A stretch of DNA of 34,159 nt from Flavobacteriales bacterium (GTDB lineage: Bacteria; Bacteroidota; Bacteroidia; Flavobacteriales_F; PHOS-HE28): contig DAORNP010000015.1 in assembly GCA_035441065.1 (NCBI GenBank), positions 1 through 34,159 of the forward strand, in the 5' to 3' direction. The notes under the pieces were generated by a model. The model saw only the letters and a list, made by a program, of their open reading frames with translations. It searched no databases and had not been told where the DNA came from. Both the position numbers and the translations under genes were made by a program. Of this stretch, positions 5,704-29,156 are shown in pieces (positions within the stretch are counted from its first letter, which is position 1; each line of letters starts with the position of its first letter).

Positions 5704-6219
5704 ATGCACAAAGGCATGCGCACAAGGGCGAAGGTAGCCGGGGCCATCGGTCTGCTGCTCTTGGCGCTCACTGGATGCCGGCCCGAGAAGAAGTTCCCGG
5801 CTGAGCCCGTGATCGAGTTCAAGTCGTTCACGCAGTACGGCGATTCAGCCTCGTTGGTGATCAACTTCACCGATGGTGATGGAGACATCGGCTTGGGCGA
5901 ATCGGACAGCCAACCGCCCTTCGATACGGGCAGCACCTATTACCACAACCTGTTCGTGGAATACGACACCTTGGAGAACGGCACATGGCGACGCGTGCAA
6001 TTCCTGCTCCCGCTCTACTACCGCATCCCGCGCATTACGCCCACTGGGCAGAACAAGACCTTGGAAGGCGAGATTGCCGTGGCCCTGAAGCCGTGGCCTT
6101 TGGTCACCTACCCCACTGGTTGGCCAGCGGATACCATTCGCCTCACCGTGACCTTGGTTGACCGTTCGCTGAACGTGAGCAACGCCGTGGAGAGCCCGCC
6201 GCAGCGGATCGTGTACTGA
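5704..6219 (+). CDS. hypothetical lipoprotein
   Basis: This is the in-frame distal part of the 4756..6219 ORF. Starting at MHKGMRTRAKVAGAIGLLLLALTGC gives a signal peptide plus lipobox (LTGC). The upstream part of the ORF is antisense to the LuxE-like gene. Confidence 0.6.
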   Translation: MHKGMRTRAKVAGAIGLLLLALTGCRPEKKFPAEPVIEFKSFTQYGDSASLVINFTDGDGDIGLGESDSQPPFDTGSTYYHNLFVEYDTLENGTWRRVQFLLPLYYRIPRITPTGQNKTLEGEIAVALKPWPLVTYPTGWPADTIRLTVTLVDRSLNVSNAVESPPQRIVY

Positions 6220-7905
6220 TCACGTCTCACCCGCAAGTGCCTCGCTCACGTTGATGAGGTGATCGCCCACCTTCTCGCAGCTGCTGAAGAGGTCGTGATA
6301 GACCAATCCGCTTCGCACGTTGTAATCGCCCTCTTCGATGCTCCGCCAGTGCTTCAGGCGCAAATGGTCGCGCATGGCGTTGATGCGCTGCTCCGCCTCC
6401 ACCGCCGCATCAAGCCGCACGGCCTCCTGCTCCGCATCCAGGTTGGTGACCATCACCTCGAAGGCCTGATTGAGCAGGTCGAGCATGGCGAGCAGGTCCT
6501 GACGCTGCTCCGGTGAGAACCAGAGCTTGTCGTCGAGTTTGCGCTCCATTGACTTGCTCATCTGGAAGAAGATGTCGCCCACTCGCTCCAAGTCGCCCAC
6601 GATGCTGAGCATGCCGCGGATGCGCCCGCTCAGCTCTTCATTGCGCGCCTCGGTGCTGGTCTTCGTGAGGTATTTGCCCACTTCCACCTCCAGGCGGTCG
6701 GTGATCTGTTCATAGCGTTCGAGGCGCTGCATGAGGCGGTCGCGCGCGATGGGGTCGCGCATGGTGAGCAATTGGCGCGTCATGCCCAGCATCTCGTGCG
6801 TGAGCTTGCCGAAGCGCGCGATCTCACGGCGCGCTTCGATCAGCGACACTTCGGGCGAGAGCGGGATATCGGCATCAAGGTACTCCAGACGGTACTCCTC
6901 GTCGAGCTGGGTCCGCGCCGGCACCATCCATGTGACGATGCGCTCAAGCATGGGCACGAAGCCGACCAAGAGCAGCGTGTTGGCCACGTTGAAGCCGATG
7001 TGCAAGGCGGTGAGCGCCCATTTGATGCTCGATGGCTCGGTGTAGGGCGAGGCGCCGAATTGGAAGGTGATGAGTGCATCGATCGCATCGAGCATGGGCT
7101 TGAACAGGAGCAAGGCCCACGCCGCGCCGATGAGGTTGAAGAGCAAGTGCGCGCGCGCCGTGCGCTTCGCCCAAGCGCTGGCCACCAGCGCGGCGATGTT
7201 GGCGGTGAGCGTGGTGCCGATGTTCTCGCCGATGATCAGCGCGGCGGCCATGTCGTAGCCAATGGTGCCATTCTCACAGAGCACCAGCGTGAGCGCGATG
7301 GAAGCGCTCGAGCTCTGGATCACCGCAGCCAGCAGGGTTCCAACACCAACGAAGAGCAGGACCGAAAGCAAACCGCGATCGCTCAGGCCGCGCAGGAAGC
7401 TGAGCGCTTCGGCCGATGGCGTCGGCACCGACTGCTTCAGGAACTCGATGCCCAAGAAGAGCAACGCGGCCCCCATGAGAAACTCGGCGCCGGCCCGCGC
7501 GCGCGGCGACTTGATGAAGAGCAACGGAAAGGCGATGCCGATGATGGGGATGGCCAGCTTGGTGATGCTCATGTCGGCGAACACCGCCCAACTGAAGAGC
7601 ACGGCCTTAATCGTAGTGCCGATGTTGGCACCCATGATCACGCTTATGGCCTGCCGAACGCTGAGCAGTCCCGCGTTCACAAAACCCACTACCATCACTG
7701 TTGCCGCGCTACTGCTCTGGATCACGCCTGTGCTCACCAGGCCGGTGAGCACGCCGCGGAAACGATTGGCCGTCATGCTCGCAAGCACCGTTCGCATGCG
7801 GCGGCCAGCCACGCGCTGCAGGCCCTCGCTCATCACCTTCATCCCGTAGATGAACAGGCCCAGCGATCCCGCAAGGGTGAGGAACTCGATGAGGCCGAAA
7901 TGCAT
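6220..7905 (-). CDS. Na+/phosphate cotransporter family protein with C-terminal PhoU-like domain
   Basis: Polytopic N-terminal half with the duplicated Na/Pi-cotransporter signature (QSSSA appears twice). Soluble helical C-terminal half is of PhoU type. Start trimmed to MHFGLIEFLTLAG. Confidence 0.9.
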   Translation of the reverse strand: MHFGLIEFLTLAGSLGLFIYGMKVMSEGLQRVAGRRMRTVLASMTANRFRGVLTGLVSTGVIQSSSAATVMVVGFVNAGLLSVRQAISVIMGANIGTTIKAVLFSWAVFADMSITKLAIPIIGIAFPLLFIKSPRARAGAEFLMGAALLFLGIEFLKQSVPTPSAEALSFLRGLSDRGLLSVLLFVGVGTLLAAVIQSSSASIALTLVLCENGTIGYDMAAALIIGENIGTTLTANIAALVASAWAKRTARAHLLFNLIGAAWALLLFKPMLDAIDALITFQFGASPYTEPSSIKWALTALHIGFNVANTLLLVGFVPMLERIVTWMVPARTQLDEEYRLEYLDADIPLSPEVSLIEARREIARFGKLTHEMLGMTRQLLTMRDPIARDRLMQRLERYEQITDRLEVEVGKYLTKTSTEARNEELSGRIRGMLSIVGDLERVGDIFFQMSKSMERKLDDKLWFSPEQRQDLLAMLDLLNQAFEVMVTNLDAEQEAVRLDAAVEAEQRINAMRDHLRLKHWRSIEEGDYNVRSGLVYHDLFSSCEKVGDHLINVSEALAGET

Positions 7906-7919
7906 GGGTAAGCGGGCGG

Positions 7920-7927
7920 CGAATCTA
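7920..7927 (-). promoter_or_regulatory. candidate -7 promoter box (TAGATTCG on minus strand) for the Na/Pi transporter gene
   Basis: TAnnTT(C)G box 14 nt upstream of the ATG at 7905, with a TTG 17 nt further upstream on the same strand. Confidence 0.35.
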
Positions 7928-7991
7928 CCCGTGCCCTGTTTCGGCAAGGTTAAGTCTGCGTGCTGCGGGGCCATGCTGCGCAAGCGGCGCC

Positions 7992-7999
7992 TAAACTTG
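7992..7999 (+). promoter_or_regulatory. candidate -7-like box (TAAACTTG) for the histidine kinase gene
   Basis: 16 nt upstream of the ATG at 8016. The same 12-mer TAAACTTGCGCC recurs upstream of purH. It overlaps a 7-bp inverted repeat (7978-7984 / 7996-8002). Confidence 0.3.
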
Positions 8000-8015
8000 C
8001 GCCAACAGCCCGTTC

Positions 8016-9050
8016 ATGGATCAGCTCACCACGCGCCAAGTCGCACTGCTCGCCGCGCTCGTGGTGGCCGTGGCCGGCGGGCTTCTCGCTGGCGTAGCGG
8101 TCGACATCACCGGCTCGTCGATTGCGCGCTGGTGGCCCTTCATCTGCGCACTTCTCGTGTTCGGGGTCGCCTACGGCGTTTTCGCATTCGGCATCGAGCG
8201 CTTCGTGCATGGGCGCATCAAGACCCTGTACCGCACCGTGCATGACCTGCGACGCGCGAAGCCCGACGCCTCCGCATCGAATGCCGGTGACGAGTTGAGC
8301 CGCGTGAACGCAGAAGTGGCCGAATGGGCCAGCGAGCGGCGCACCGAGATCCGCGGCCTGCAAGAGCGCGAGAAATTCCGCCGCGAATTCATCGGCAACC
8401 TCGCGCACGAGCTCAAGACGCCCATCTTCAACATCCAGGGCTACATCCTCACTTTGCTCGAGGGCGGCCTTGAGGATGGCAAGGTGAACCGCGATTTCCT
8501 GGAGCGCGCATCGAATGGCGTGGACCGCCTGATGAAGATCGTGGAGGACCTGGACATGATCACCAAGCTCGAGAGCGGCGCGATGGAGCTGCGTGTGGCC
8601 CGCACCGATCTGCACACGGTGGTGAAAGAGGCGATCGAAGGCCTTGAGCTGAATTCGCGGGAGAAGGGCGTGCGCCTGGTGAACGAAGTAGCGCCGGGCA
8701 CCGAGGTGATGGCCGACCGCAACCGCTTGCTCCAGGTCTGCACGAACCTGCTCAACAATGCAATCAACTACGGTCGCGAAGGCGGACGATGCACCATCTC
8801 GTGCTACCCCCTCGGCGAGCAGATCGCCGTTGATGTGAGCGACGATGGAATCGGCATCAGCCCCGAGCACCTGCCGCGCCTCTTCGAGCGCTTCTATCGC
8901 GTGGGCAAGAGCCGCGCGCGCAACGAGGGCGGATCAGGGCTGGGACTGGCCATCGTGAAGCACATCATCGATGCGCATGGGCAGACCATTGCGGTGAAGA
9001 GCGATGAAGGGAAGGGCACCACCTTCACCTTCACGCTGCAAGGACGGTAG
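8016..9050 (+). CDS. membrane sensor histidine kinase (HisKA + HATPase_c), no adjacent response regulator
   Basis: Two N-terminal hydrophobic helices with a very short connecting loop. H-box HELKTP, N-box NLLNNAINY, G-boxes DDGIGI and GGSGLGLAIVK. Confidence 0.9.
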   Translation: MDQLTTRQVALLAALVVAVAGGLLAGVAVDITGSSIARWWPFICALLVFGVAYGVFAFGIERFVHGRIKTLYRTVHDLRRAKPDASASNAGDELSRVNAEVAEWASERRTEIRGLQEREKFRREFIGNLAHELKTPIFNIQGYILTLLEGGLEDGKVNRDFLERASNGVDRLMKIVEDLDMITKLESGAMELRVARTDLHTVVKEAIEGLELNSREKGVRLVNEVAPGTEVMADRNRLLQVCTNLLNNAINYGREGGRCTISCYPLGEQIAVDVSDDGIGISPEHLPRLFERFYRVGKSRARNEGGSGLGLAIVKHIIDAHGQTIAVKSDEGKGTTFTFTLQGR

Positions 9051-9066
9051 GCAGATGGCGTAGAGC

Positions 9067-10305
9067 CTATTGCTCCTTCACCGCATCCTCATACAGCACC
9101 ACCTCCTTCTCGTTATTGATGCTGATGCGCGCGATCTCGTCGAACAAGGTGACCTTGCCGGTGACGCAGACTTTCTTGTTCAGTAGCCATTGCTCCGGGT
9201 CGTAGCTGAAGTTGATGCCATTGTTCTGCCAGATGGTTGCGTAGAACTGCTCGTTCGGGCTCTTGGAGTCGAAGTTCAGGTAAATGGCCTTGGCCTTCAC
9301 GGTGGTACGCGTGCTCACCACCGTCCCACAGACGGTCACGGTCTTGCCCACGTGGTATTTCGCCTGCGCGCTGTTGAACATGCCCTTGGGCAAAGGCGCT
9401 TTCAAAGGCGGCACTTCGCCGGCATTGGGGTCGCCATCGGGATACCAGTCACGTGTTTCGCTCATGCGCTCGATCCGCTCCTCAACCGCATCGCCAAGGG
9501 CGGGGAAGAAGTCGATCCCAGTGAGCTTCTCCACACTATCCACTGGAACGGCGTAGCTGATCACGGGCAGGTCCAGCTTGGCATTGCTCATCACGAAGGC
9601 AATGGCTTTGGAATCGTCGCCGTCCAGGTCGGCGATCACTTTCCAGAACAGCTCTGGGATGCTCACCTCATTCTTGCGATCGGGCTTCTGCATGGTGGGC
9701 AATCCATCGCGCAGCACAGGGCCCGTGGCAATGAATAGCCTCCGCTTCGAGTAGTACACGTAGCGGCGCGTCCAATCCTCTAATTCGGCCCAACGCCCGC
9801 GATTGAAGTCGGCCAGTTGAGGGCTGATGTTCGAGTAGTAATAGGTGGCGCGCAGGGCGTCGACGTTCCAGCGCATATCGGCACTCGGCACCAAGTGCCC
9901 GCGGTCGAAGCCGCTGTTCCAGTAGTCGGCGGTCACCGCAGTGCCCGTCTTCACCTTGGGATCGGGAATGAAGGAATCGATGCGCGCGAGATTTCCGGTG
10001 ATCAGTTCAGGCGCAGCAATGTGCACGGTCCATTTCGGCTGCTCGTGCTTCTCCTCATACACCAGCATGTGGCCGGGATGCTCGATCACTTCATCGCCGG
10101 GCATCAATGCCGGGAGCCCCAGTTTCCATAGGTCGCGGCGCATGATGGCCAGTTTCACGGAATCCAGCTTCGCGATGCTCGCGCGCTGCTGGTCCTGCAA
10201 GCGCTCGTGCTGCTGCTGCACGCGCTTGAGCTGCTCGTCGAGATCGTATTGGGCGGAGGCGCTTGCCGCTAGAAGCGTGCAGGCCAGGAGTAAGGGTCGC
10301 ATCAT
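9067..10305 (-). CDS. secreted DNA/RNA non-specific endonuclease (NucA/EndoG beta-beta-alpha-Me family) with C-terminal OB-fold-like domain
   Basis: Signal peptide MMRPLLLACTLLAASASAQ. Catalytic DRGH motif (GFDRGHLVPSADM) and downstream NISPQ...NRGRWAELE. The last ~97 aa have an alternating beta pattern (TVTVCGTVVS...KVCVTGKVTLF) resembling an OB fold. Confidence 0.85.
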   Translation of the reverse strand: MMRPLLLACTLLAASASAQYDLDEQLKRVQQQHERLQDQQRASIAKLDSVKLAIMRRDLWKLGLPALMPGDEVIEHPGHMLVYEEKHEQPKWTVHIAAPELITGNLARIDSFIPDPKVKTGTAVTADYWNSGFDRGHLVPSADMRWNVDALRATYYYSNISPQLADFNRGRWAELEDWTRRYVYYSKRRLFIATGPVLRDGLPTMQKPDRKNEVSIPELFWKVIADLDGDDSKAIAFVMSNAKLDLPVISYAVPVDSVEKLTGIDFFPALGDAVEERIERMSETRDWYPDGDPNAGEVPPLKAPLPKGMFNSAQAKYHVGKTVTVCGTVVSTRTTVKAKAIYLNFDSKSPNEQFYATIWQNNGINFSYDPEQWLLNKKVCVTGKVTLFDEIARISINNEKEVVLYEDAVKEQ

Positions 10306-11402
10306 GCTCGGCGCAAGGTAGTCGGCGCGCGGCGGAGCAAGAGCGAGGCCAGATCTTCCATGGCCTCCTCCAATAGGTCGCCGCCTTGCGGAGCCAGCGG
10401 TTGTGCGAACCGGCGCATCTGCTGCAACGCGCTCTCGAGGTCGATGGCTTCCTGCTTCTGCACGACGAAGCGGCCTGTGCGCGCATGCAAGCGGCCGAGG
10501 TATTCCTGCTCCTCTTGCCCCGGTGTGGGAATGATGAGCGCACTGCGGCCCAATGCCGCGAGGTCCATCAACGTGGTGTAGCCGCTGCGCGAAACGACCA
10601 GCTCTGCGCCCAGCATCGCATTCGCCAATTCAACTCCGCTCATGTGCGAGCGCACGCGCACATTGCCCTGCTGCTCATCGCGCGGATGCTGCGGTTGCCC
10701 AAGCACCAGCAGGTGATCGCCCGGCAATGCGTGAAGGGCATCGAGCAAACGCTGCTCGAGCAAGGAGCGCTGCGGCTCAGGACCGCTGATCACGGCGGCG
10801 ACCGTGTAGCTCGGTGCTGTCCCTTGCTTCGCGGATGACATTCTGCTCACCACCCCGATGTAGCGCGCGTTCGGCGGAAGCGCATCACCATGCGAAAGGT
10901 CGCCCGCCAGCCCTGGTGCCTGCGCCTCGTCCATGATCCAGCTGCGATCGAAACGGCCGATATGGCGCAGGTTCAGCTTGCGCAAGGCGCGCTGCGCCAA
11001 GGGCGTGAACGGGAAGACCTGATGCGTGACGAGCACGCTGGGAAGCTCAGCGCAGCGCACGCCGAAACGCTGGTCGCTGATCACTGCATCGAGGCGCACC
11101 TGCTGGCGGATGCGATCGAAGGCCGCGCGCTCGGCCTGCACGCTGCGCACCATTGCGGGGAATTGCCGCGCCATGCTCCAGATCTGAGTGCTGGTCTTGG
11201 AGTAGCGCACCTCCACGCCGGGCAGCCGAACGAATTCGAGTTGCGGGAACTCCGCGCGCAGCAACGCCAGCGGACCGCCATCGGCACCGATGATGGGCAG
11301 CGCGTTGCGCGCAATTAGGCGTTGAATGATGGGCACGCAGCGAGCGGCATGGCCCAGGCCCCAGTCGAGCGGGGCAACCAAGATGCGAGCACCGTGCAGC
11401 AT
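10302..11402 (-). CDS. GT-B fold glycosyltransferase (MurG/GT28-C-terminal-like, uncharacterised subfamily)
   Basis: N-terminal G-x-G-H motif (PLDWGLGHAARCVPI). C-terminal nucleotide-sugar binding region (SRSGYTTLMDLAALGRSALIIPTPGQEEQ). The stop overlaps the nuclease start (ATGA). Confidence 0.75.
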   Translation of the reverse strand: MLHGARILVAPLDWGLGHAARCVPIIQRLIARNALPIIGADGGPLALLRAEFPQLEFVRLPGVEVRYSKTSTQIWSMARQFPAMVRSVQAERAAFDRIRQQVRLDAVISDQRFGVRCAELPSVLVTHQVFPFTPLAQRALRKLNLRHIGRFDRSWIMDEAQAPGLAGDLSHGDALPPNARYIGVVSRMSSAKQGTAPSYTVAAVISGPEPQRSLLEQRLLDALHALPGDHLLVLGQPQHPRDEQQGNVRVRSHMSGVELANAMLGAELVVSRSGYTTLMDLAALGRSALIIPTPGQEEQEYLGRLHARTGRFVVQKQEAIDLESALQQMRRFAQPLAPQGGDLLEEAMEDLASLLLRRAPTTLRRA

Positions 11403-11470
11403 ATCTCCTTCCCGCATTGCGAGCGTGCGAAGGTGGTCACACCGGAGTGAAGCCGATGTTACTCGGCGGC

Positions 11471-11478
11471 TACTTTCG
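11471..11478 (+). promoter_or_regulatory. candidate -7 promoter box (TACTTTCG) for trmB
   Basis: TAnnTT(C)G box 13 nt upstream of the ATG at 11492. Confidence 0.3.
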
Positions 11479-11491
11479 CGCGCCTTTCACC

Positions 11492-12187
11492 ATGGGTAAG
11501 AACAAACTCGCTCGCTTCGCCGAGAACCTCACCTTCGAGCATGTGGTGCAGCCCACCTTTGAGGAGCTCATGCAGGGCGGCCTTCACTTCAAGGGCCGTT
11601 GGAACTCTGACTTCTTCGAGCGCGAGGCGCCATTGGTGCTGGAGCTGGGCTGCGGCGGGGGCGAGTACACCGTGGGCCTCGCACGGCTCTATCCGCAGCG
11701 CAACTTCATCGGTGTCGATATCAAAGGCGCTCGGCTTTGGCGGGGCGCACGCACGGCCCAAGAGGAAGGCCTCACGAACGTCGGCTTCCTGCGGACGCAT
11801 GTCGATCACTTGCTGAAGTGCTTCGGTCCGCAGGAAGTGGACGAGATCTGGCTCACCTTCAGCGATCCGCAGATCGGCAAGGCGCGCAAGCGATTGACGA
11901 GTCCCTTATTCCTCAATCGGTACAGGCAAGTGCTCAAGCCCGGTGGCCTCATCCACCTGAAGACCGATAGTCCCTTGCTTTACGAATACACCTTGGAGAT
12001 GATCGCCGAGCACAAGCTCAAGGTGCATGAGCAGAGCGCTGAGGTGTATGCTGATCTCGTGCATCGCGTATCGCCCGAGGAGCAGGCCGTGCTGAACATC
12101 CGCACCTATTACGAGCAGATGTGGCTGGCCGAGGGAAGAACGATCCATTACGTGCGGTTCAGCCTTGATGGGGCGCAGAAAATCTGA
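11492..12187 (+). CDS. trmB: tRNA (guanine46-N7)-methyltransferase
   Basis: Start trimmed to MGKNKLARFAEN. SAM-binding LELGCGGGEY, conserved FSDPQ..KARKRL segment, length about 231 aa. Confidence 0.9.
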   Translation: MGKNKLARFAENLTFEHVVQPTFEELMQGGLHFKGRWNSDFFEREAPLVLELGCGGGEYTVGLARLYPQRNFIGVDIKGARLWRGARTAQEEGLTNVGFLRTHVDHLLKCFGPQEVDEIWLTFSDPQIGKARKRLTSPLFLNRYRQVLKPGGLIHLKTDSPLLYEYTLEMIAEHKLKVHEQSAEVYADLVHRVSPEEQAVLNIRTYYEQMWLAEGRTIHYVRFSLDGAQKI

Positions 12188-12216
12188 TTGAAACACGCAT
12201 CACCGATAATCGTCAG

Positions 12217-12585
12217 ATGGCCAGACGCGTTGTAATCAATGATGCGGTGAACGAGCGCGACTTCTTCGCCGACGTGATGGACGTAGTGCGCCAGATCCCA
12301 CGCGGACGGGTAACGAGCTACGGCGCCATCGCGAAATACCTCGGTGCCGCACGCTCGGCGCGCATCGTGGGCTATTGCATGAACAATAGCCACACCGTGA
12401 AGCCGACCGTTCCTGCGCATCGTGTAGTGAACAGCGCGGGCATCCTCAGCGGCAAGCACCACTTCGGCCCCGATGACCGCATGCAGCGACTATTGGAGAA
12501 GGAAGGCGTGAAGGTGAATGACGACCAGGTGGTTGACTTCGCCAAGCGCTTCTGGGACCCGGCTGTGGAGCTAGGCCTTGGGTGA
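12217..12585 (+). CDS. alkyltransferase-like (ATL) protein, MGMT-family DNA-binding domain without the acceptor cysteine
   Basis: Matches the YbaZ/Atl1 pattern: IPRGRVTSYGAIAKYLG..RSARIVG, then VPAHRVVNSAGILS. An MGMT would have PCHRV at that position, so Cys is replaced by Ala. 122 aa with no N-terminal MGMT domain. Confidence 0.85.
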   Translation: MARRVVINDAVNERDFFADVMDVVRQIPRGRVTSYGAIAKYLGAARSARIVGYCMNNSHTVKPTVPAHRVVNSAGILSGKHHFGPDDRMQRLLEKEGVKVNDDQVVDFAKRFWDPAVELGLG

Positions 12586-12729
12586 ATGAAATGACACGCC
12601 GAGCACGCTGAAAGACCTGCGCAATCACAGCACACGGGCAGCCCACCACTGGCCTGGTCCTCTCCAGCACATTGTCAACCCTTGATTATCAATCATTTGC
12701 AAGCGACCCTCCGGTAGCAACTGCCCACC

Positions 12730-24113: not shown

Positions 24114-24257
24114 TAAACGCGCCTTCAACGTCCGTCACGGACAAGGGCGCCGATGAATGAGGCTTCTGCGATCAGTCGGCACCGAAGCCTGCGCAATTTG
24201 CCCGGCAATGCTCACCTTTCGGACCCAACGTTTTCAGACAACCTGAATCCAGACTGC

Positions 24258-25904
24258 ATGGCCAAGAAGAAGTCCGCTGCGCGCAAGAAATCCACCAGCA
24301 AGGCCTCTCGCGCACGCAAGCCAGCCCGTACATCGCCGCGGAAGAAGACAACCCTGGCCCGCAGGCCTGCGGCCAAGCCGACAGGTCCCGCCAAACCGGG
24401 GAAGCGCCCCGCAAAGAAGAAGCCCGCCAACCTCCTCAAGGGCATCAGCGACATCCGCCGCTTCTTCCACCGCAACGAGGTGCCGCTCTACTTCATCAGC
24501 GCCACCAACTTCAACCTGCTGGGCGCCGACGAGTGGATCAAGGGCTTCAAGTTCATCACCTACATCGACTGCTTCGATGGGCTGCATCCTAACCTGATGA
24601 GCCCGCGCACCGAGGAGCCGCACGAGGAGTTCCAAAGCATCGAGGACATCAACAACTACCTGCTCACCCATAGCGAGGTGCGCGACTACATCGAGAGCCG
24701 GCGCATGAGTCCGAAGTCCGCGGGCAAGGCGCTCTTCCTCATGTTCGATGAGAGGACCGAGGCGCTCGCGAAGAAGGCCGGGCTGGAGGTGATCTTCCCT
24801 CCTGCGAAACTGCGCAGCTGGCTCGACAACAAGGTGAACACCAACCGCGTGGCGGAGAAGGCCGGAGTGCCCTGCGTGCCCTACGTGCTGCACCCGGTGA
24901 AGAGCTTCGAGCACTTGATGCAAGTGGCCGCGAAAGGCAAGCTCGGCAACGACCTCGTGGTGCAAACGCCCTACGGCGATAGCGGCCACACCACCTTCTT
25001 CATCAAGACCCAAGCGGACTACGACAAGTACGCGAAGGAGATCGAAGCGGAGAAGGAGTGCAAGATCATGAAACGCATCAACTGCCGGGGCGCGGCCATG
25101 GAAGCGTGCGTCACGCGGCACGGCACCATCGTGGCCCCGCTCATGACGGAGCTGGTGGGCTTCAAGGAGCTCACGCCCTACAAAGGCGGCTGGTGCGGCA
25201 ACGAGATCTTCGCCGACACCTTCACGCCGGAGATCCGCGCGAAGGCCCGGCGCTACGCGAAGAAGTTCGGCGATCAATTGCTGAAGGAGGGCTACAAAGG
25301 CTACTTCGAGCTGGATTACCTCATCGATAAGGACAGCGGCGAGATCTACCTCGGCGAATTGAACCCGCGCGTCACCGGTGCGAGCTCCATCACCAACCAC
25401 GCGGTCTTCGCGCTGAGCGATGCGCCGCTGCATCTCTTCCACACGCTGGAATGGATGGACGTGCCCTACGAGCTGAGCGTGAACGCGCTGAACCGCCGCT
25501 GGTCCGACCCGCGCAACATCGACAGCTGGGGCCAGATGGTGATCAAGTACACCACCGACGATGTGCAGCGCGTGACCGACGCGCCTCGCAGCGGCATCTG
25601 GCGCATGCGCGACGATGGCAGCATCTACTTCTGGCGAATGGACACGCACCGCCGCTACGTGGAGAAGGACAACGAGGCCTTCTTCCTGCGCATCACGCGT
25701 CCTGGAGACTGGTTCTACGAGGGCGCCGACATGGGCATCCTCGTTATGCGCGGCCGGATGATGACCGACGACTTCCAACTGACCGAGCGCGCGAAGAAGT
25801 GGCTGGCGGCGATACGCACGCAGTTCAAGAGCGTTGCTCCGGGAGCGCACAGCTCCAGCGGACATGAGCACATGCTTGAGATCGGAGGGTTCAAAATGAT
25901 GTGA
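24258..25904 (+). CDS. ATP-grasp superfamily ligase with a ~56-aa K/R/P/A-rich N-terminal tail (substrate unknown)
   Basis: ATP-grasp core: DLVVQTPYGDSGHTTFFI, KIMKRINCRGAAMEACV, GGWCGNE, and the Mg-ATP loop YFELDYLID...IYLGELNPRVTGAS (E-x-N-x-R). Start placed at MAKKK (24258), because codons 24153-24257 are rich in A/T-ending codons, unlike the rest of the gene. Confidence 0.85.
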   Translation: MAKKKSAARKKSTSKASRARKPARTSPRKKTTLARRPAAKPTGPAKPGKRPAKKKPANLLKGISDIRRFFHRNEVPLYFISATNFNLLGADEWIKGFKFITYIDCFDGLHPNLMSPRTEEPHEEFQSIEDINNYLLTHSEVRDYIESRRMSPKSAGKALFLMFDERTEALAKKAGLEVIFPPAKLRSWLDNKVNTNRVAEKAGVPCVPYVLHPVKSFEHLMQVAAKGKLGNDLVVQTPYGDSGHTTFFIKTQADYDKYAKEIEAEKECKIMKRINCRGAAMEACVTRHGTIVAPLMTELVGFKELTPYKGGWCGNEIFADTFTPEIRAKARRYAKKFGDQLLKEGYKGYFELDYLIDKDSGEIYLGELNPRVTGASSITNHAVFALSDAPLHLFHTLEWMDVPYELSVNALNRRWSDPRNIDSWGQMVIKYTTDDVQRVTDAPRSGIWRMRDDGSIYFWRMDTHRRYVEKDNEAFFLRITRPGDWFYEGADMGILVMRGRMMTDDFQLTERAKKWLAAIRTQFKSVAPGAHSSSGHEHMLEIGGFKMM

Positions 25905-25916
25905 GGAGGAGCACGC

Positions 25917-26909
25917 ATGTACGTACATCTGAAGCTTGTGAAGGAGCCTTGGCCGAGCGACCGCTGGCAATCGTTCTTCGACCATGCCTGGCCCTTGTTC
26001 CGGATCTGGTATGAGAGCGAAGGGCTGGAGAAGCGCCCGGACCTGGTGACCTGCCGCAGCATGCTGGAGCTGCACATGCCGGAGCTGATCCCGGTGTACA
26101 ACAGCCTATGCCGCCTCGCGAACAACGACGACGTGGCCTGCCGCTTCCTCACCATGTGGAACCCGCCGCCCTACATGGCCGGCTGCTCCCAGGTGGCCTG
26201 GACCAAGGGCGCGCCCACGCTCATCCGCAACTACGACTTCGACCCGCGCTACTTCGATGGGCGCATGCGCTACAGCGAGTATGTTAAACCGGTGATCGGG
26301 ATCCAGGACAGCGGCTGGGGCCTGCTCGACGGCATGAACAGCGATGGTCTTGCCGTGGCGCTCGCCTTTGGTGGGAGGAAGGTGTGGGGCACAGGTTTCG
26401 GCATACCGCTGGTGATCCGCTACGTGCTGGAGACCTGCAGCACCACGGACGAAGCCTGCGACGTGCTGCGGCGCATCCCCGTGCACATGGGCTATAACGT
26501 CACCGTGGTGGACAAGAGCGGCAAGTACGCCACCGTGTACATGAACCATGATCGTCCGGCACAGGTGATCTACCAGGCCGTGGCGTGCAACCACCAGCAC
26601 CAGGTGGAGTGGGACGAGTACGCGGCCTTCACGAATACCATCGAGCGCAAGCACTTCCTCGAGCACAGCATCGCGCAGCCCAAGCTCACCCGCGCCCAGC
26701 TCATCAAGCAGTTCCTGAAACCACCGCTGTATAGCCAGCAATACCTGCGGGGCTTCGGCACACTCTACACCGCAGCCTACGATGTGGCCAAGGGCCGCGT
26801 GCAGATCATCTGGCCCGACAAGCAGGTGGAGGCAAGTTTTTCCCGCTTCGAGGAACAGGAGGTGCAGGTGGTGTTGCTAAGGCCGGTGGGGAGGTACTTG
26901 GCGAAGTAG
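25917..26909 (+). CDS. C45-family Ntn hydrolase / acyl-CoA:6-aminopenicillanic-acid acyltransferase-like protein
   Basis: Gly-Cys candidate autoprocessing site (YMAGCSQVAW, Cys90 at 26184-26186). Downstream motifs IRNYDF, GMNSDGLAVAL and GYNVTVVD fit the C45/choloylglycine-hydrolase-like fold. The start is 12 nt after the ATP-grasp stop and is preceded by GGAGGA. Confidence 0.8.
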   Translation: MYVHLKLVKEPWPSDRWQSFFDHAWPLFRIWYESEGLEKRPDLVTCRSMLELHMPELIPVYNSLCRLANNDDVACRFLTMWNPPPYMAGCSQVAWTKGAPTLIRNYDFDPRYFDGRMRYSEYVKPVIGIQDSGWGLLDGMNSDGLAVALAFGGRKVWGTGFGIPLVIRYVLETCSTTDEACDVLRRIPVHMGYNVTVVDKSGKYATVYMNHDRPAQVIYQAVACNHQHQVEWDEYAAFTNTIERKHFLEHSIAQPKLTRAQLIKQFLKPPLYSQQYLRGFGTLYTAAYDVAKGRVQIIWPDKQVEASFSRFEEQEVQVVLLRPVGRYLAK

Positions 26910-27004
26910 ATGTGCGTCCCGGTCCTCGCCGTGTGAGTCCATCGGTTTCGCGCTTCACAAACGGCACTCCAAGCCTCACGCTTTCAGTCAGGTACTTTTG
27001 CCTC

Positions 27005-28453
27005 ATGTCTCAGACGCTGATCGCCTCGCTCTTCACCCCCGCCAACTACATCAACGGCTCCTGGTCCTTCGAGGGCGATGGCAGCTTCAACACCGTGGTG
27101 GACAAGTACCACGGCGCCGAGCTGGCACGGATCCCGAACGCGTCGGAGGCGCAGATGGAAGAAGCGATCGCCGCTGCTCATGCGAGCCGCGATGTGCTGC
27201 GGAAGATGAGCGCCGGCGAGCGCAGCGCGAAGCTCGATGCACTGGCCGCGCTGATCGCGAAGCACGAAGACGAGATTGCCGAGCTGATGGTAAAGGAGGC
27301 CGGCAAGCCCATCGGCGCGGCGCGGGTCGAGGTGGCGCGCAGCATCACCACAGTGCGCACGGCCGCTGCGGAAGCGCTTCGATTCGGTGGTGAGGTCACG
27401 CCCATGGACTTCGGCGCGGGCGTTGGCAAGACCGCCTTCACCAAGCGCTTCCCGATCGGTGTCATCGCCGCCATCACGCCTTTCAACTTCCCGCTGAACC
27501 TGGTGCTGCACAAGGTGGCGCCGGCCATGGCGGTGGGCTGTCCAGTGGTGCTGAAGCCCTCTCCTCAAGCACCGCTGTGCTCCTTCGTGCTCGCGCGCTT
27601 CATGGAGGAGATTGGCTGGCCCAAGGAGGCCTTCCATGTGTTGATGTGCGGCGTGTCTGTGGCTGAGAAGCTCGTGAAGGACGAACGCGTGGCCATGCTC
27701 AGCTTCACCGGCAGTGACAAAGTGGGCTGGCACCTGAAGAATATCTGCGGCAAGAAGAAGCTCGCGCTGGAGCTGGGCGGCAACGCAGCCGTGATCATCG
27801 ACGATGGCACCGACCTCGCCGCTGCTGCGAAGACCGTGGCCGCAGGTGCCAACGCCTACGCCGGGCAGACCTGCATCAGCACGCAGCGCATTTATGCCGT
27901 GAAGAGCGTGTTCGCGCAGTTCCGAGATCTGCTCGTGAAGGAGTACGCCGCATTGAAGGCAGGTGATCCCAGCGACGCCAGCGTGACCGCAGGCCCCATC
28001 ATCGACAAGGGGCACTTCGAGCGGATAGGCGGTTGGGTGGCTGAAGCTGTGCAGGGCGGAGCGCGACTGCTGGCGGGTGGGAAGCCAGTGGATGCGGCGC
28101 GCAACGTGTATGCACCGACCCTGCTCACCGGCACCAAGGACAGCATGAAAGTGAGCTGCGCGGAAGTGTTCGGTCCAGTCGCAGTGCTCGAAGAGGTTCC
28201 GGACTTCAGCGAAGCGATCGCTCAAGTGAACAACAGCACCTACGGCCTGCAGGCGGGTGTTTTCACCGATTCAGTGATGCACATGAAGCAGGCGCACGAG
28301 GAGCTGGAGGTGGGCGGCATCATCATCGGCAATGTGCCGGGTTTCCGTATCGACAGCATGCCCTACGGTGGCATCAAGGACAGCGGGCTGGGGCGCGAGG
28401 GCGTCAAGTACGCCATGGAGGAGATGAGCGAGCCGCGGCTGCTGGTGTATTGA
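27005..28453 (+). CDS. NAD(P)+-dependent aldehyde dehydrogenase
   Basis: Start trimmed to MSQTLIASLF. Catalytic Glu (LALELGGNA) and Cys (AGQTCISTQR), C-terminal EEMSEPRLLV-type tail. 482 aa. Confidence 0.93.
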   Translation: MSQTLIASLFTPANYINGSWSFEGDGSFNTVVDKYHGAELARIPNASEAQMEEAIAAAHASRDVLRKMSAGERSAKLDALAALIAKHEDEIAELMVKEAGKPIGAARVEVARSITTVRTAAAEALRFGGEVTPMDFGAGVGKTAFTKRFPIGVIAAITPFNFPLNLVLHKVAPAMAVGCPVVLKPSPQAPLCSFVLARFMEEIGWPKEAFHVLMCGVSVAEKLVKDERVAMLSFTGSDKVGWHLKNICGKKKLALELGGNAAVIIDDGTDLAAAAKTVAAGANAYAGQTCISTQRIYAVKSVFAQFRDLLVKEYAALKAGDPSDASVTAGPIIDKGHFERIGGWVAEAVQGGARLLAGGKPVDAARNVYAPTLLTGTKDSMKVSCAEVFGPVAVLEEVPDFSEAIAQVNNSTYGLQAGVFTDSVMHMKQAHEELEVGGIIIGNVPGFRIDSMPYGGIKDSGLGREGVKYAMEEMSEPRLLVY

Positions 28454-28454
28454 C

Positions 28455-29156
28455 TCAGCGCCCGGTCCAAGCCGCGCGGACCGCTTCTTTGTGCGTACGG
28501 CCGAGCGGGAGGCTCGCTCCGTCGAGCAGCACCTCCTTCTCGGTGAGCGCGGTGATGCGTCGCGCATCGACCAGGAAGCCTCTGTGGATGCGCACGAAAT
28601 GCGGCGAAGCCAGGCGCTCTTCCATGCCATTGAGTGTTGCGGTGAGCACGTAGCGCTGTCCCACCGTGTGGATCACCACATAGTTGTCGTCCGCTTCCAT
28701 GTAGCGGATGTCGTCGATGCGTACCTTCACTAACCGCCCCTTGTCGCGCACGAGCAGATGGTCCTTGGCTACGCCGAAGCCGATTCGCGCCAATGCGATG
28801 GTGATCTGCGCGCGCAGGTCGGCGGCCTCGAACGGCTTGATCACGAAGCCTTCGGGCCTTGTGGCCTTCACACGTTCAAGCGTTGCTGAATCGGCATGCG
28901 AGGTGATGTAAAGGAAGGGTATGCGCAATCTGCTCGTGAGCTCTTGTGCTACTTCAACGCCGTCAGGAGCGCCGTGCAACCGGATATCGAGCAGCGCCAA
29001 GTCGGGCTGTTCTTGCTGCGCCAAGGTGATTGCCATGTTGCCGTTGTGCGCGATGCCCACCACCATGTGCCCCATCTCCTCCAGCATCGCCTGCATGTCA
29101 GCAGCGATGAGCGGCTCGTCCTCGACGATGAGCAGTCGTGCGCGCTGCATGTTCAT
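28455..29156 (-). CDS. LytTR/AlgR-family response regulator (REC + LytTR DNA-binding domain)
   Basis: REC domain (LLIVEDEPLIA..., phosphoacceptor region LALLDIRL). C-terminal LytTR domain (IRYMEADDNYVVIHT...FVRIHRGFLV). Confidence 0.92.
   Translation of the reverse strand: MNMQRARLLIVEDEPLIAADMQAMLEEMGHMVVGIAHNGNMAITLAQQEQPDLALLDIRLHGAPDGVEVAQELTSRLRIPFLYITSHADSATLERVKATRPEGFVIKPFEAADLRAQITIALARIGFGVAKDHLLVRDKGRLVKVRIDDIRYMEADDNYVVIHTVGQRYVLTATLNGMEERLASPHFVRIHRGFLVDARRITALTEKEVLLDGASLPLGRTHKEAVRAAWTGR

Follow-up and report, generated by a model that had tools for sequence, protein, structure and literature searches.

The long-form decarboxylase Rv2531c of Mycobacterium tuberculosis was shown in 2026 to be an L-glutamate decarboxylase that feeds the gamma-aminobutyrate (GABA) shunt; the enzyme is inactive on lysine, ornithine, and arginine, displays hysteresis and cooperativity, and shares a similarity-network cluster with proteins of Flavobacteriia (PMC13506015). 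The present work concerns three genes, encoding an ATP-grasp enzyme, a C45-family Cys N-terminal nucleophile (Ntn) hydrolase, and an aldehyde dehydrogenase (ALDH), on contig DAORNP010000015.1 of the Flavobacteriales assembly GCA_035441065.1; the whole analyzed stretch of this contig (34,159 nucleotides) is here called the window. Conserved gene neighborhoods make it very probable that this trio is the distal (3') half of a widespread glutamate/GABA catabolic operon, as regards both its membership in the operon and its pathway context. Functional statements throughout are based on homology, modelling, and gene context.

With the shunt fed by Rv2531c (GabT, GabD), the operon shares a full-length decarboxylase orthologue that retains the key residues, a GabT-like aminotransferase, and ALDHs resembling succinate-semialdehyde dehydrogenase (SSADH). 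In contrast, no ATP-grasp, C45, or CN-hydrolase protein has been described in M. tuberculosis for this route or is mentioned in the study of Rv2531c (PMC13506015), and the decarboxylase is absent from the window itself. The Puu pathway of Escherichia coli (PuuA, PuuC, PuuD, PuuE/YneI) combines an ALDH and an SSADH with a ligase that forms amides at the expense of ATP, a hydrolase for amides, and a GABA transaminase, and likewise ends with the conversion of GABA to succinate. The likeness is one of logic alone, however: PuuA is glutamine-synthetase-like and PuuD is of the class-I amidotransferase type, whereas an ATP-grasp enzyme and a Cys-Ntn hydrolase of the C45 family are found here. Furthermore, the operon contains no oxidase, and its entry substrate is apparently glutamate (or arginine) rather than putrescine.

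Conserved neighborhood of the ATP-grasp gene

At least 585 species-level genomes carry a relative of the ATP-grasp protein, and the trio, or the pair of ATP-grasp and C45 genes, is found again in dozens of genomes, which belong to several phyla. One genome per species was scanned, and the 80 best ATP-grasp loci from these at least 585 genomes were analyzed; this set consists of the most similar relatives, so that Bacteroidota are over-represented. Of 71 evaluable loci, 66 have a C45 gene on the same strand within 3 kb downstream of the ATP-grasp gene, and in 56 the two lie no more than 300 nt apart. An ALDH gene was found within 5 kb downstream in 38 of 60 evaluable loci. These synteny counts rule out a chance adjacency of the trio, a concern raised in an earlier note on this DNA, and the constancy with which C45 follows the ATP-grasp gene upholds the trio as a conserved unit.

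The strongest partners of the ATP-grasp gene lie outside the window trio. Clustering of all open reading frames of the loci revealed a 917-amino-acid pyridoxal phosphate (PLP)-type decarboxylase encoded upstream in 63 of 69 evaluable loci, and genes for a CN-hydrolase (47/62), a VOC-like protein (39/62), and a class-III aminotransferase (36/62, a count limited by the 6-kb flank) were also located upstream. The earlier note missed this context because these partners lie beyond the coordinates that it covered. In full, the operon comprises, in this order, genes for the GabT-like class-III aminotransferase, the CN-hydrolase, the VOC-like protein of about 136 amino acids, the decarboxylase, the ATP-grasp enzyme, the C45 protein, and the ALDH. 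The decarboxylase gene usually abuts or overlaps the start of the ATP-grasp gene, and in Cytophagales a gene for an APC permease stands between the two. Junctions within the operon consist of gaps of 1 to 8 nt or overlaps of 4 nt, which implies co-translation.

The decarboxylase, ATP-grasp, and C45 genes are still found together at 40 to 44% ATP-grasp identity (loci L081 and L082). This core is also present in Gemmatimonadaceae, and cultured carriers include Roseobacter ponti (ATP-grasp protein WP_169642560), Cupriavidus oxalaticus, Chondrinema litorale (WP_284687742), and the symbiosis plasmids of Rhizobium leguminosarum and Sinorhizobium meliloti. Some loci from metagenome-assembled genomes (MAGs) assigned to Burkholderiales, Limnohabitans, and Hyphomicrobiales encode proteins 71 to 73% identical to a Flavobacteriales protein and may be mis-binned. 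Within the high-GC Flavobacteriales clade of the window, one relative (L105, 91% identity) contains the full operon, and another (L101, 95% identity) contains the decarboxylase, ATP-grasp, C45, and ALDH genes. In the window and in loci L010 and L087, the trio stands alone behind unrelated genes, and a related MAG (L104) has the decarboxylase gene by itself, indicating that the two halves of the operon can be unlinked. No tblastn match to the decarboxylase, aminotransferase, CN-hydrolase, VOC-like protein, or permease was obtained in the 34-kb window; the decarboxylase of this organism may be encoded elsewhere in the genome.

The upstream partners define the pathway context. The Flavobacteriales decarboxylase matches Rv2531c over its full length (PDB 9n0n and 9n0o; E = 3e-243 to 5e-235) and keeps H405, K406, T606, N731, the PLP lysine K570, and R576, the residue for the gamma-carboxylate; R718 is replaced by lysine. 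An activity on ornithine, lysine, or arginine that would make a protected diamine, as a polyamine-related role would suggest, was considered and dropped, given an Rv2531c orthologue with Arg576 kept. The aminotransferase matches models of GABA transaminases best, at 482 bits and below their cutoff, and was named gabT by PGAP in Chondrinema and R. ponti. The CN-hydrolase belongs to the Nit2/omega-amidase branch (PDB matches 1j31 and 2w1v). Judged from these similarities, the conserved operon would encode a complete GABA shunt plus four extras, namely, the ATP-grasp enzyme, the C45 protein, the CN-hydrolase, and the VOC-like protein.

Papers on S. meliloti describe the decarboxylase SMa0682 as a FixJ-activated, stress-induced putative polyamine gene, on the basis of expression data only. 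A distant long-form decarboxylase, 45% identical to that of S. meliloti, is encoded on plasmid pT173d of Ensifer canadensis (L097, positions 6063 to 12638). Its gene is flanked by two genes for AspT-type aspartate:alanine antiporters, with an aspartate 4-decarboxylase gene nearby and no ATP-grasp gene. This locus looks like a precursor/product-exchange decarboxylation module, and the antiporters around the decarboxylase also fit an acidic amino-acid substrate.

Furthermore, the ATP-grasp/C45 pair occurs in other genomic contexts. On plasmids of Shinella zoogloeoides, Sinorhizobium sp. RAC02, and 'Roseateles' sp. XES5 (a record flagged UNVERIFIED_ORG), it lies in the middle of a different operon with genes for an amino-acid permease, an agmatinase-family enzyme, an ALDH of the amino/guanidino-aldehyde type, a D-amino-acid dehydrogenase, an Orr-like racemase, and a 5-guanidino-2-oxopentanoate decarboxylase (AruI; 737 bits against a cutoff of 500). 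Genes for a CN-hydrolase and an Lrp regulator are divergent from this plasmid operon. Judged from the arginine transaminase and D-arginine dehydrogenase routes of Pseudomonas, this gene set converts arginine via 2-ketoarginine and 4-guanidinobutyrate to GABA and urea. Thus, two unrelated GABA-forming routes share a module of ATP-grasp enzyme, C45 protein, and CN-hydrolase. In Cupriavidus necator N-1, the CN-hydrolase gene directly precedes the ATP-grasp gene, with no decarboxylase gene between them. On the symbiosis plasmids of R. leguminosarum (L094 and L095) and on pSmeSM11c of S. meliloti (L088), the genes that come after the core encode a peptide-type ABC importer, a regulator of the MurR/RpiR kind, and two hydrolytic enzymes (an amidase and a serine hydrolase); in one strain the core lies directly beside nifHDKEN.

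The three enzymes of the window

Profile hidden Markov models (HMMs) and fold models confirmed the identities given earlier to the three gene products. The ATP-grasp protein reaches 775.5 bits with the whole-protein HMM NF005096 (cutoff, 684), covering model positions 8 to 478 of 493, and its only Pfam match, CPSase_L_D2, remains below threshold. It is 72 to 95% identical to more than 100 metagenomic proteins; its core shows 82% identity between Flavobacteriales and Gemmatimonadaceae and 55 to 64% identity to Proteobacteria. The AlphaFold2 (AF2) model (pLDDT 93, pTM 0.91) matched many ATP-grasp structures in Foldseek at a probability of 1.00, which indicates the three-domain fold with a central nucleotide-binding domain. 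Biotin carboxylase (BC) and PurK were matched over the full length (about 490 columns, TM about 0.6, 12 to 16% identity). A profile of 35 diverse family members found only BC domains (1e-12), carbamoyl-phosphate synthetase (CPS; 3e-5), and PurK (5e-3) in the PDB; there was no match to Ddl, RimK, GshB, or amino-acid ligases. According to the model, the protein has the full BC/PurK-type architecture. The earlier statement that the extra domains of BC are missing therefore fails, given the full-length match of the AF2 model to BC and PurK. The E-x-N-x-R loop described in the same place is present (Table 1), with E367, N369, and R371 invariant in alignment A1 and nearly so in the diverse alignment A2.

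Public MAG annotations name this protein 'biotin carboxylase', and no experimental basis for that name of NF005096 was found in a literature search. Like members of the BC/PurK/CPS clade, it has the three-domain fold over its whole length and the E-x-N-x-R loop; unlike them, it carries extra N- and C-terminal tails. It reached only 19 bits with the accC equivalog TIGR00514 (cutoff, 626), 19 to 31 bits with true accC models, and 15 to 31 bits with other curated BC and pyruvate carboxylase models (cutoffs, 400 to 1100). In a phmmer alignment to pyruvate carboxylase, the GELNPRVTG loop pairs with EVNPRIQVE. The catalytic base Glu296 of BC (QVE) and Lys238 (EK) are thereby aligned with alanines (TGA and EA), an assignment that is moderately reliable at such low identity. 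No gene for a biotinyl carrier or a conserved carboxyltransferase was present in the annotated neighborhoods of 12 loci; the one exception, a nonconserved Carboxyl_trans gene, was seen at a distance of 6 kb in L087. A true BC is unlikely because the curated models fail, Glu296 and Lys238 align with alanines, and no biotin carrier is encoded nearby, and the name 'biotin carboxylase' for NF005096 is probably a systematic misnomer. As the earlier note had supposed, the protein falls outside any experimentally characterized ATP-grasp family, and we found no paper on NF005096/PRK06524, on the pair of ATP-grasp and C45 proteins, or on this operon.

Both termini of the ATP-grasp protein extend beyond the conserved core. 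The N-terminal tail is polycationic and of low complexity; orthologues have tails of different length and sequence, and some have none (alignment A1). This tail resembles that of histone H1, and its lysine richness in a genome of 62% GC argues for translation and selection. The C-terminal tail follows a variable disordered linker, and the last 17 residues have a pLDDT below 50 in the AF2 model. A motif consisting of [FY]-K-hydrophobic(1-2)-COOH was found in 73 of 99 loci from Bacteroidota, Gemmatimonadota, and Proteobacteria, with variants such as LEIGGFKMM in the window, FKIL in Proteobacteria, and YKVF in a 44%-identical member. A second type, L-[TM]-K-COOH (G-S-L-T-K), ends the protein in 19 of 99 loci. 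The tail type co-varies with the length of the C45 protein (median, 330 versus 403 amino acids) and with the ALDH type, the GSLTK tail going together with the longer C45 protein and a GabD-like ALDH. The tail looks like a docking peptide or a swinging arm.

The C45 protein matches PF03417 (4e-33; 115 bits, cutoff 23) and NF040521 (161 bits, cutoff 85). A phmmer search against PDB sequences gave no real match, and its structural relatives were found by fold comparison of the AF2 model (pLDDT 94). The model has the alpha-beta-beta-alpha fold of Ntn hydrolases. The best matches are structures of the isopenicillin-N acyltransferase (IAT) precursor (2x1c/2x1d; TM 0.61 to 0.69, with 0.68 for 2x1c); NAAA and bile-salt hydrolases rank next, together with acid ceramidase and penicillin V acylase. 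These relatives are Cys-Ntn hydrolases of linear, nonpeptide amides, and IAT, the founder of the C45 family, cleaves the omega-amide of an acidic amino acid. Cys90 is invariant, with glycine or alanine before it, in two alignments (23 and 28 homologues), and RNYD (residues 104 to 107), FGG(R) (151 to 154), GFG, and N225/Q227 are invariant or nearly so in one or both. The site between Gly89 and Cys90 lies at a position equivalent to the self-cleavage site of IAT and presumably parallels the latter's Gly102 and Cys103. Processing into parts of about 10 kDa and 27 kDa would be expected by analogy. In contrast to IAT, to which it is about 15% identical, the window C45 protein is bacterial and shows no link to beta-lactam genes or acyl-CoA supply.

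The ALDH (PF00171 at 2e-136) has the catalytic residues Cys290 (GQTC) and Glu256 (ELGGN). Its best PDB matches are a Burkholderia ALDH (5jry/5kf0) and the moss ALDH21 (5mz5; 2e-106). ALDH21 is an SSADH that holds the carboxylate of its substrate through Arg121, Arg457, and Tyr296 (bioRxiv 10.64898/2026.01.13.699213). The two arginines align with Arg112 and Arg448 of the window protein, and Tyr296 is shifted by one position, provided that a tag offsets the numbering of the PDB chain by 18 residues (PpALDH21 numbering). The SSADH model TIGR01780 gives 329 bits, below its cutoff of 646, and the best NCBIfam match is a lactaldehyde dehydrogenase model (427 bits, cutoff 650); ALDH21 itself is covered by no curated model. 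From its sequence, the window ALDH is probably a dehydrogenase of the succinate-semialdehyde type. Loci with an ALDH gene are split equally between orthologues of the window protein and another type that is only 27 to 30% identical to it. This alternative ALDH is GabD-like (NF006915 at 508 bits, below the cutoff) and annotated as SSADH in Chondrinema. Because the ALDH is the least constant member, is interchangeable, and keeps the succinate-semialdehyde arginines, we regard it as the last step of the GABA shunt rather than as a supplier of the ligase.

Gene layout and further features of the locus

The three genes are intact and, as the earlier note had it, co-directional, with spacings of 12 and 95 nt and a GGAGGA located 6 nt ahead of the C45 start codon (Table 1). 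For the ATP-grasp gene, an alternative in-frame ATG at 24153 would extend the protein by 35 residues; the start at 24258 is favored by the database gene call (P0001, an identical protein of 548 amino acids) and by orthologue alignments. The stop codon TGA of this gene occupies positions 25902 to 25904. The Shine-Dalgarno-like GGAGGA is indeed present, but it is not conserved: relatives lack it at this junction, most lineages having gaps of 1 to 8 nt without it. Since even the closest relatives do not keep it, its significance as a Shine-Dalgarno sequence was set aside as uninformative. In the closest relatives, L010 (positions 5818 to 5910) and L101 (about 11630 to 11720), a palindromic repeat of about 90 nt, gcgagtggcgagt...actcgccactcgc, lies between the ATP-grasp and C45 genes; it could represent a REP-like or other small mobile element.

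Upstream of the ALDH gene, TACTTTTG is the sole plus-strand match to the Bacteroidota promoter box TAnnTTTG between 23900 and 28700, with an estimated chance expectation of about 0.4. It is a possible internal promoter, perhaps giving a leaderless ALDH transcript. Over the same interval, a scan for promoter and terminator consensus sequences remained at background level. No RNA family that might name a ligand, riboswitches included, was detected with Rfam in the window or in five full operons. The flanking genes described earlier agree with Pfam: a VTT/YqaA-type membrane protein is encoded upstream, with a score exactly at the cutoff, and a LytTR response regulator and a HisKA_2/TPR kinase are encoded convergently downstream. 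The stop codons of the ALDH gene and the convergent LytTR gene are one nucleotide apart (28453 to 28455), with no terminator-like hairpin between them. In several high-GC Flavobacteriales relatives, a gene of the PD-(D/E)XK nuclease superfamily (PDDEXK_3) is situated between operon genes, and the operon order is intact.

Table 1. Coordinates of features in the window and of inserted nuclease-superfamily genes in related loci
Feature	Locus	Position	Strand	Remarks
ATP-grasp gene, NCBIfam NF005096/PRK06524 (PGAP name 'biotin carboxylase')	Window	24258..25904	+	548 aa
Polycationic low-complexity N-terminal tail of ATP-grasp	Window	24258..24431	+	58 aa: 15 K, 8 R, 12 A, 8 P
GELNPRVTG, Mg-ATP/acyl-phosphate loop (E-x-N-x-R)	Window	25353..25379	+	Residues 366-374
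LEIGGFKMM, extreme C-terminal tail of ATP-grasp	Window	25875..25901	+	After variable disordered linker
GGAGGA, 6 nt ahead of C45 ATG	Window	25905..25910	+	Directly after ATP-grasp stop
C45-family Cys-Ntn autoproteolytic amidohydrolase/acyltransferase gene	Window	25917..26909	+	330 aa; PF03417, NF040521
G89/C90-S-Q, predicted autoprocessing site and N-terminal nucleophile Cys90	Window	26181..26192	+	From conservation
TACTTTTG, match to Bacteroidota -7 promoter box TAnnTTTG	Window	26993..27000	+	Ends 4 nt before ALDH ATG
Aldehyde dehydrogenase gene, ALDH21-like (succinate-semialdehyde-dehydrogenase-like)	Window	27005..28453	+	482 aa; PF00171
PF13366 insert	L002/L087	11803-12189		
PF13366 insert	L009	5313-5708		
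PF13366 insert	L105	8799-9185		

Possible roles of the ATP-grasp/C45 pair

We tentatively favor a model, at somewhat less than an even chance, in which the trio acts within the glutamate/GABA operon, the ATP-grasp and C45 enzymes forming a conjugation-deconjugation couple on a glutamate- or GABA-derived amide and the ALDH closing the shunt. The decarboxylase, encoded outside the window, would convert glutamate to GABA, as suggested by its homology to a biochemically proven enzyme. At the cost of ATP, the ATP-grasp enzyme would couple two members of the glutamate/GABA pool, one through its carboxylate and the other through its amine, giving an amide of the gamma-glutamyl or gamma-aminobutyryl type. 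The C45 protein, self-cleaved between Gly89 and Cys90, would cut this conjugate or its oxidized form by attack of Cys90 on the linear amide; modelling and conservation point to its fold and nucleophile, and the substrate is a putative one. The ALDH would oxidize its substrate, either succinate semialdehyde or the matching carboxy-aldehyde, to give the acid, consistent with its homology and conserved arginines. Such a scheme would follow the logic of the E. coli Puu and AST pathways, that is, attach, oxidize, and detach, with unrelated enzymes: an ATP-grasp enzyme would take the place of the glutamine-synthetase-like ligase, and a Cys-Ntn hydrolase that of the glutamine-amidotransferase-type or desuccinylase enzyme. 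The amide conjugate is supported by the C45 protein because its closest fold is that of IAT, an omega-amide cleaver. The making and breaking of amide bonds proposed in the earlier note is thus retained in the leading model, and its order of reactions is disfavored. For the ligation and deconjugation reactions taken by themselves, confidence is low to moderate.

Several observations weigh against this model. The amide conjugate is hypothetical and drawn by analogy, and the GABA shunt needs neither ATP nor a ligase, so that the pathway itself does not prescribe what the pair does. The nearest relatives of the ATP-grasp enzyme (BC, CPS, and PurK) all activate bicarbonate, not an organic acid. Rv2531c uses free glutamate, and its gene does not adjoin an ATP-grasp gene; likewise, Arg576 of the decarboxylase and the two arginines of the ALDH point to free acids rather than conjugates. 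The CN-hydrolase and the VOC-like protein are given no role by the scheme. Finally, the window is without the decarboxylase, aminotransferase, and CN-hydrolase genes, and the local trio may therefore have a narrower role.

The main rival is a bicarbonate-dependent N-carboxylation, which we regard as unlikely. Here, the ATP-grasp enzyme would make carboxyphosphate and carboxylate a small-molecule nitrogen, e.g., the amine of GABA or the lactam/amide N-H of 5-oxoproline or 2-pyrrolidone, and the activated C-N bond would be cut by the C45 protein or the CN-hydrolase, much as urea carboxylase and allophanate hydrolase act together, but without biotin. The restriction of full-length Foldseek matches to BC and PurK, of family-profile matches in the PDB to BC, CPS, and PurK, and of Pfam matches to CPSase_L_D2 would fit this reaction. 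So would the position of the pair beside CO2-releasing decarboxylases, either glutamate decarboxylase or AruI, and the presence in nearly all contexts, including C. necator, of CN-hydrolases, which typically act on N-carbamoyl compounds. However, alanines align with Glu296 and Lys238 of BC (in a low-identity alignment), no known substrate fits, and carbamates of simple amines are unstable; moreover, belonging to this clade does not determine the acid substrate, as shown by its member PurT, which takes an organic acid. Less likely, though more novel, is a cycle at the protein level, to which we give a low probability: the ATP-grasp enzyme would modify a protein lysine or glutamate, and the C45 protein would remove the modification. 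Possible targets are the C-terminal lysine (Lys546) on the flexible tail of the ATP-grasp enzyme itself, or the decarboxylase, and the role could be regulation or that of a covalent swinging-arm carrier of pathway intermediates. Precedents are LysW/LysX and BCCP, in which an ATP-grasp enzyme likewise works with a reactive residue that is conserved and sits at the tip of a flexible C-terminal tail, and the LysW pathway likewise includes a class-III aminotransferase and a final hydrolase; here, in contrast, the tail is on the ATP-grasp protein itself and ends in a lysine motif instead of glutamate, so that this is a resemblance only. The aromatic-Lys-hydrophobic-COOH tail after a disordered linker (73/99 loci, with the Lys-terminal type in 19/99), its co-variation with C45 length, the unusually conserved ATP-grasp core (82% between Flavobacteriales and Gemmatimonadaceae), and the hysteresis and cooperativity of Rv2531c, which hint at regulation (PMC13506015), are in line with such a cycle. 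Against it, the motif is missing in rhizobial symbiosis-plasmid orthologues and distant members, the pair is also found without an adjacent decarboxylase, and relatives of the C45 protein work on small-molecule amides. A particular form of this idea, very unlikely in our view, is that the ATP-grasp protein is a self-contained carrier whose C-terminal lysine is loaded by its own active site and unloaded by the C45 protein; the load may be CO2, as in a biotin-free carboxyl carrier, or a glutamate- or GABA-derived acyl group, as in a LysW-like substrate carrier.

The biosynthetic scheme of the earlier note, in which a carboxylate from the ALDH is ligated by the ATP-grasp enzyme and transferred or trimmed by the C45 protein to yield a small amide or peptide, is formally possible chemistry, and the trio is co-directional and syntenic in the clade of the window. 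Yet it has very little probability. The ALDH, on which the proposed sequence from aldehyde to acid, ligation, and transfer depends, is absent in 22 of 60 operons, including those of Gemmatimonadaceae, is replaced by a nonorthologous SSADH type in others, and has arginines of the succinate-semialdehyde type. Synthesis of a small metabolite is likewise disfavored by the neighbors, which point to catabolism: the upstream glutamate decarboxylase, the GabT-like aminotransferase, and the CN-hydrolase, together with uptake systems (permeases and ABC importers) and regulators of the Lrp/AsnC or MurR kind, and no export or tailoring genes are present. A genuine BC subunit of a biotin-dependent carboxylase, as databases name the ATP-grasp protein, is hardly credible: a score above the NF005096 cutoff and a BC-like fold speak for it, but apart from the failing curated models, the missing catalytic glutamate, and the absence of a biotinyl carrier or conserved carboxyltransferase in the annotated neighborhoods, its constant partner is a C45 hydrolase.

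The kinds of enzymes in this operon are known, and it is their conserved union with a newly recognized glutamate decarboxylase that is undescribed in the literature. Outside mycobacteria, the long-form glutamate decarboxylase is usually tied to an uncharacterized pair of ATP-grasp and C45 proteins, plus a CN-hydrolase, in Bacteroidota, Gemmatimonadota, and Proteobacteria, including rhizobial symbiosis plasmids next to nif genes. A textbook pathway that has no need for ATP thus carries a conserved ATP-spending step, which points to a gap in the understanding of bacterial glutamate/GABA metabolism, and cultured, genetically workable hosts carry the pair, among them S. meliloti (on pSymA, beside a gene for a 994-amino-acid decarboxylase), C. 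necator N-1 (on pBB1), Chondrinema litorale, Taibaiella lutea, and Salinimicrobium flavum. The C-terminal lysine tail is the part that could prove more unusual: if the ATP-grasp protein were a self-contained carrier, this would be a carrier-protein-mediated GABA shunt, in which the arm would present its load to the neighboring enzymes.

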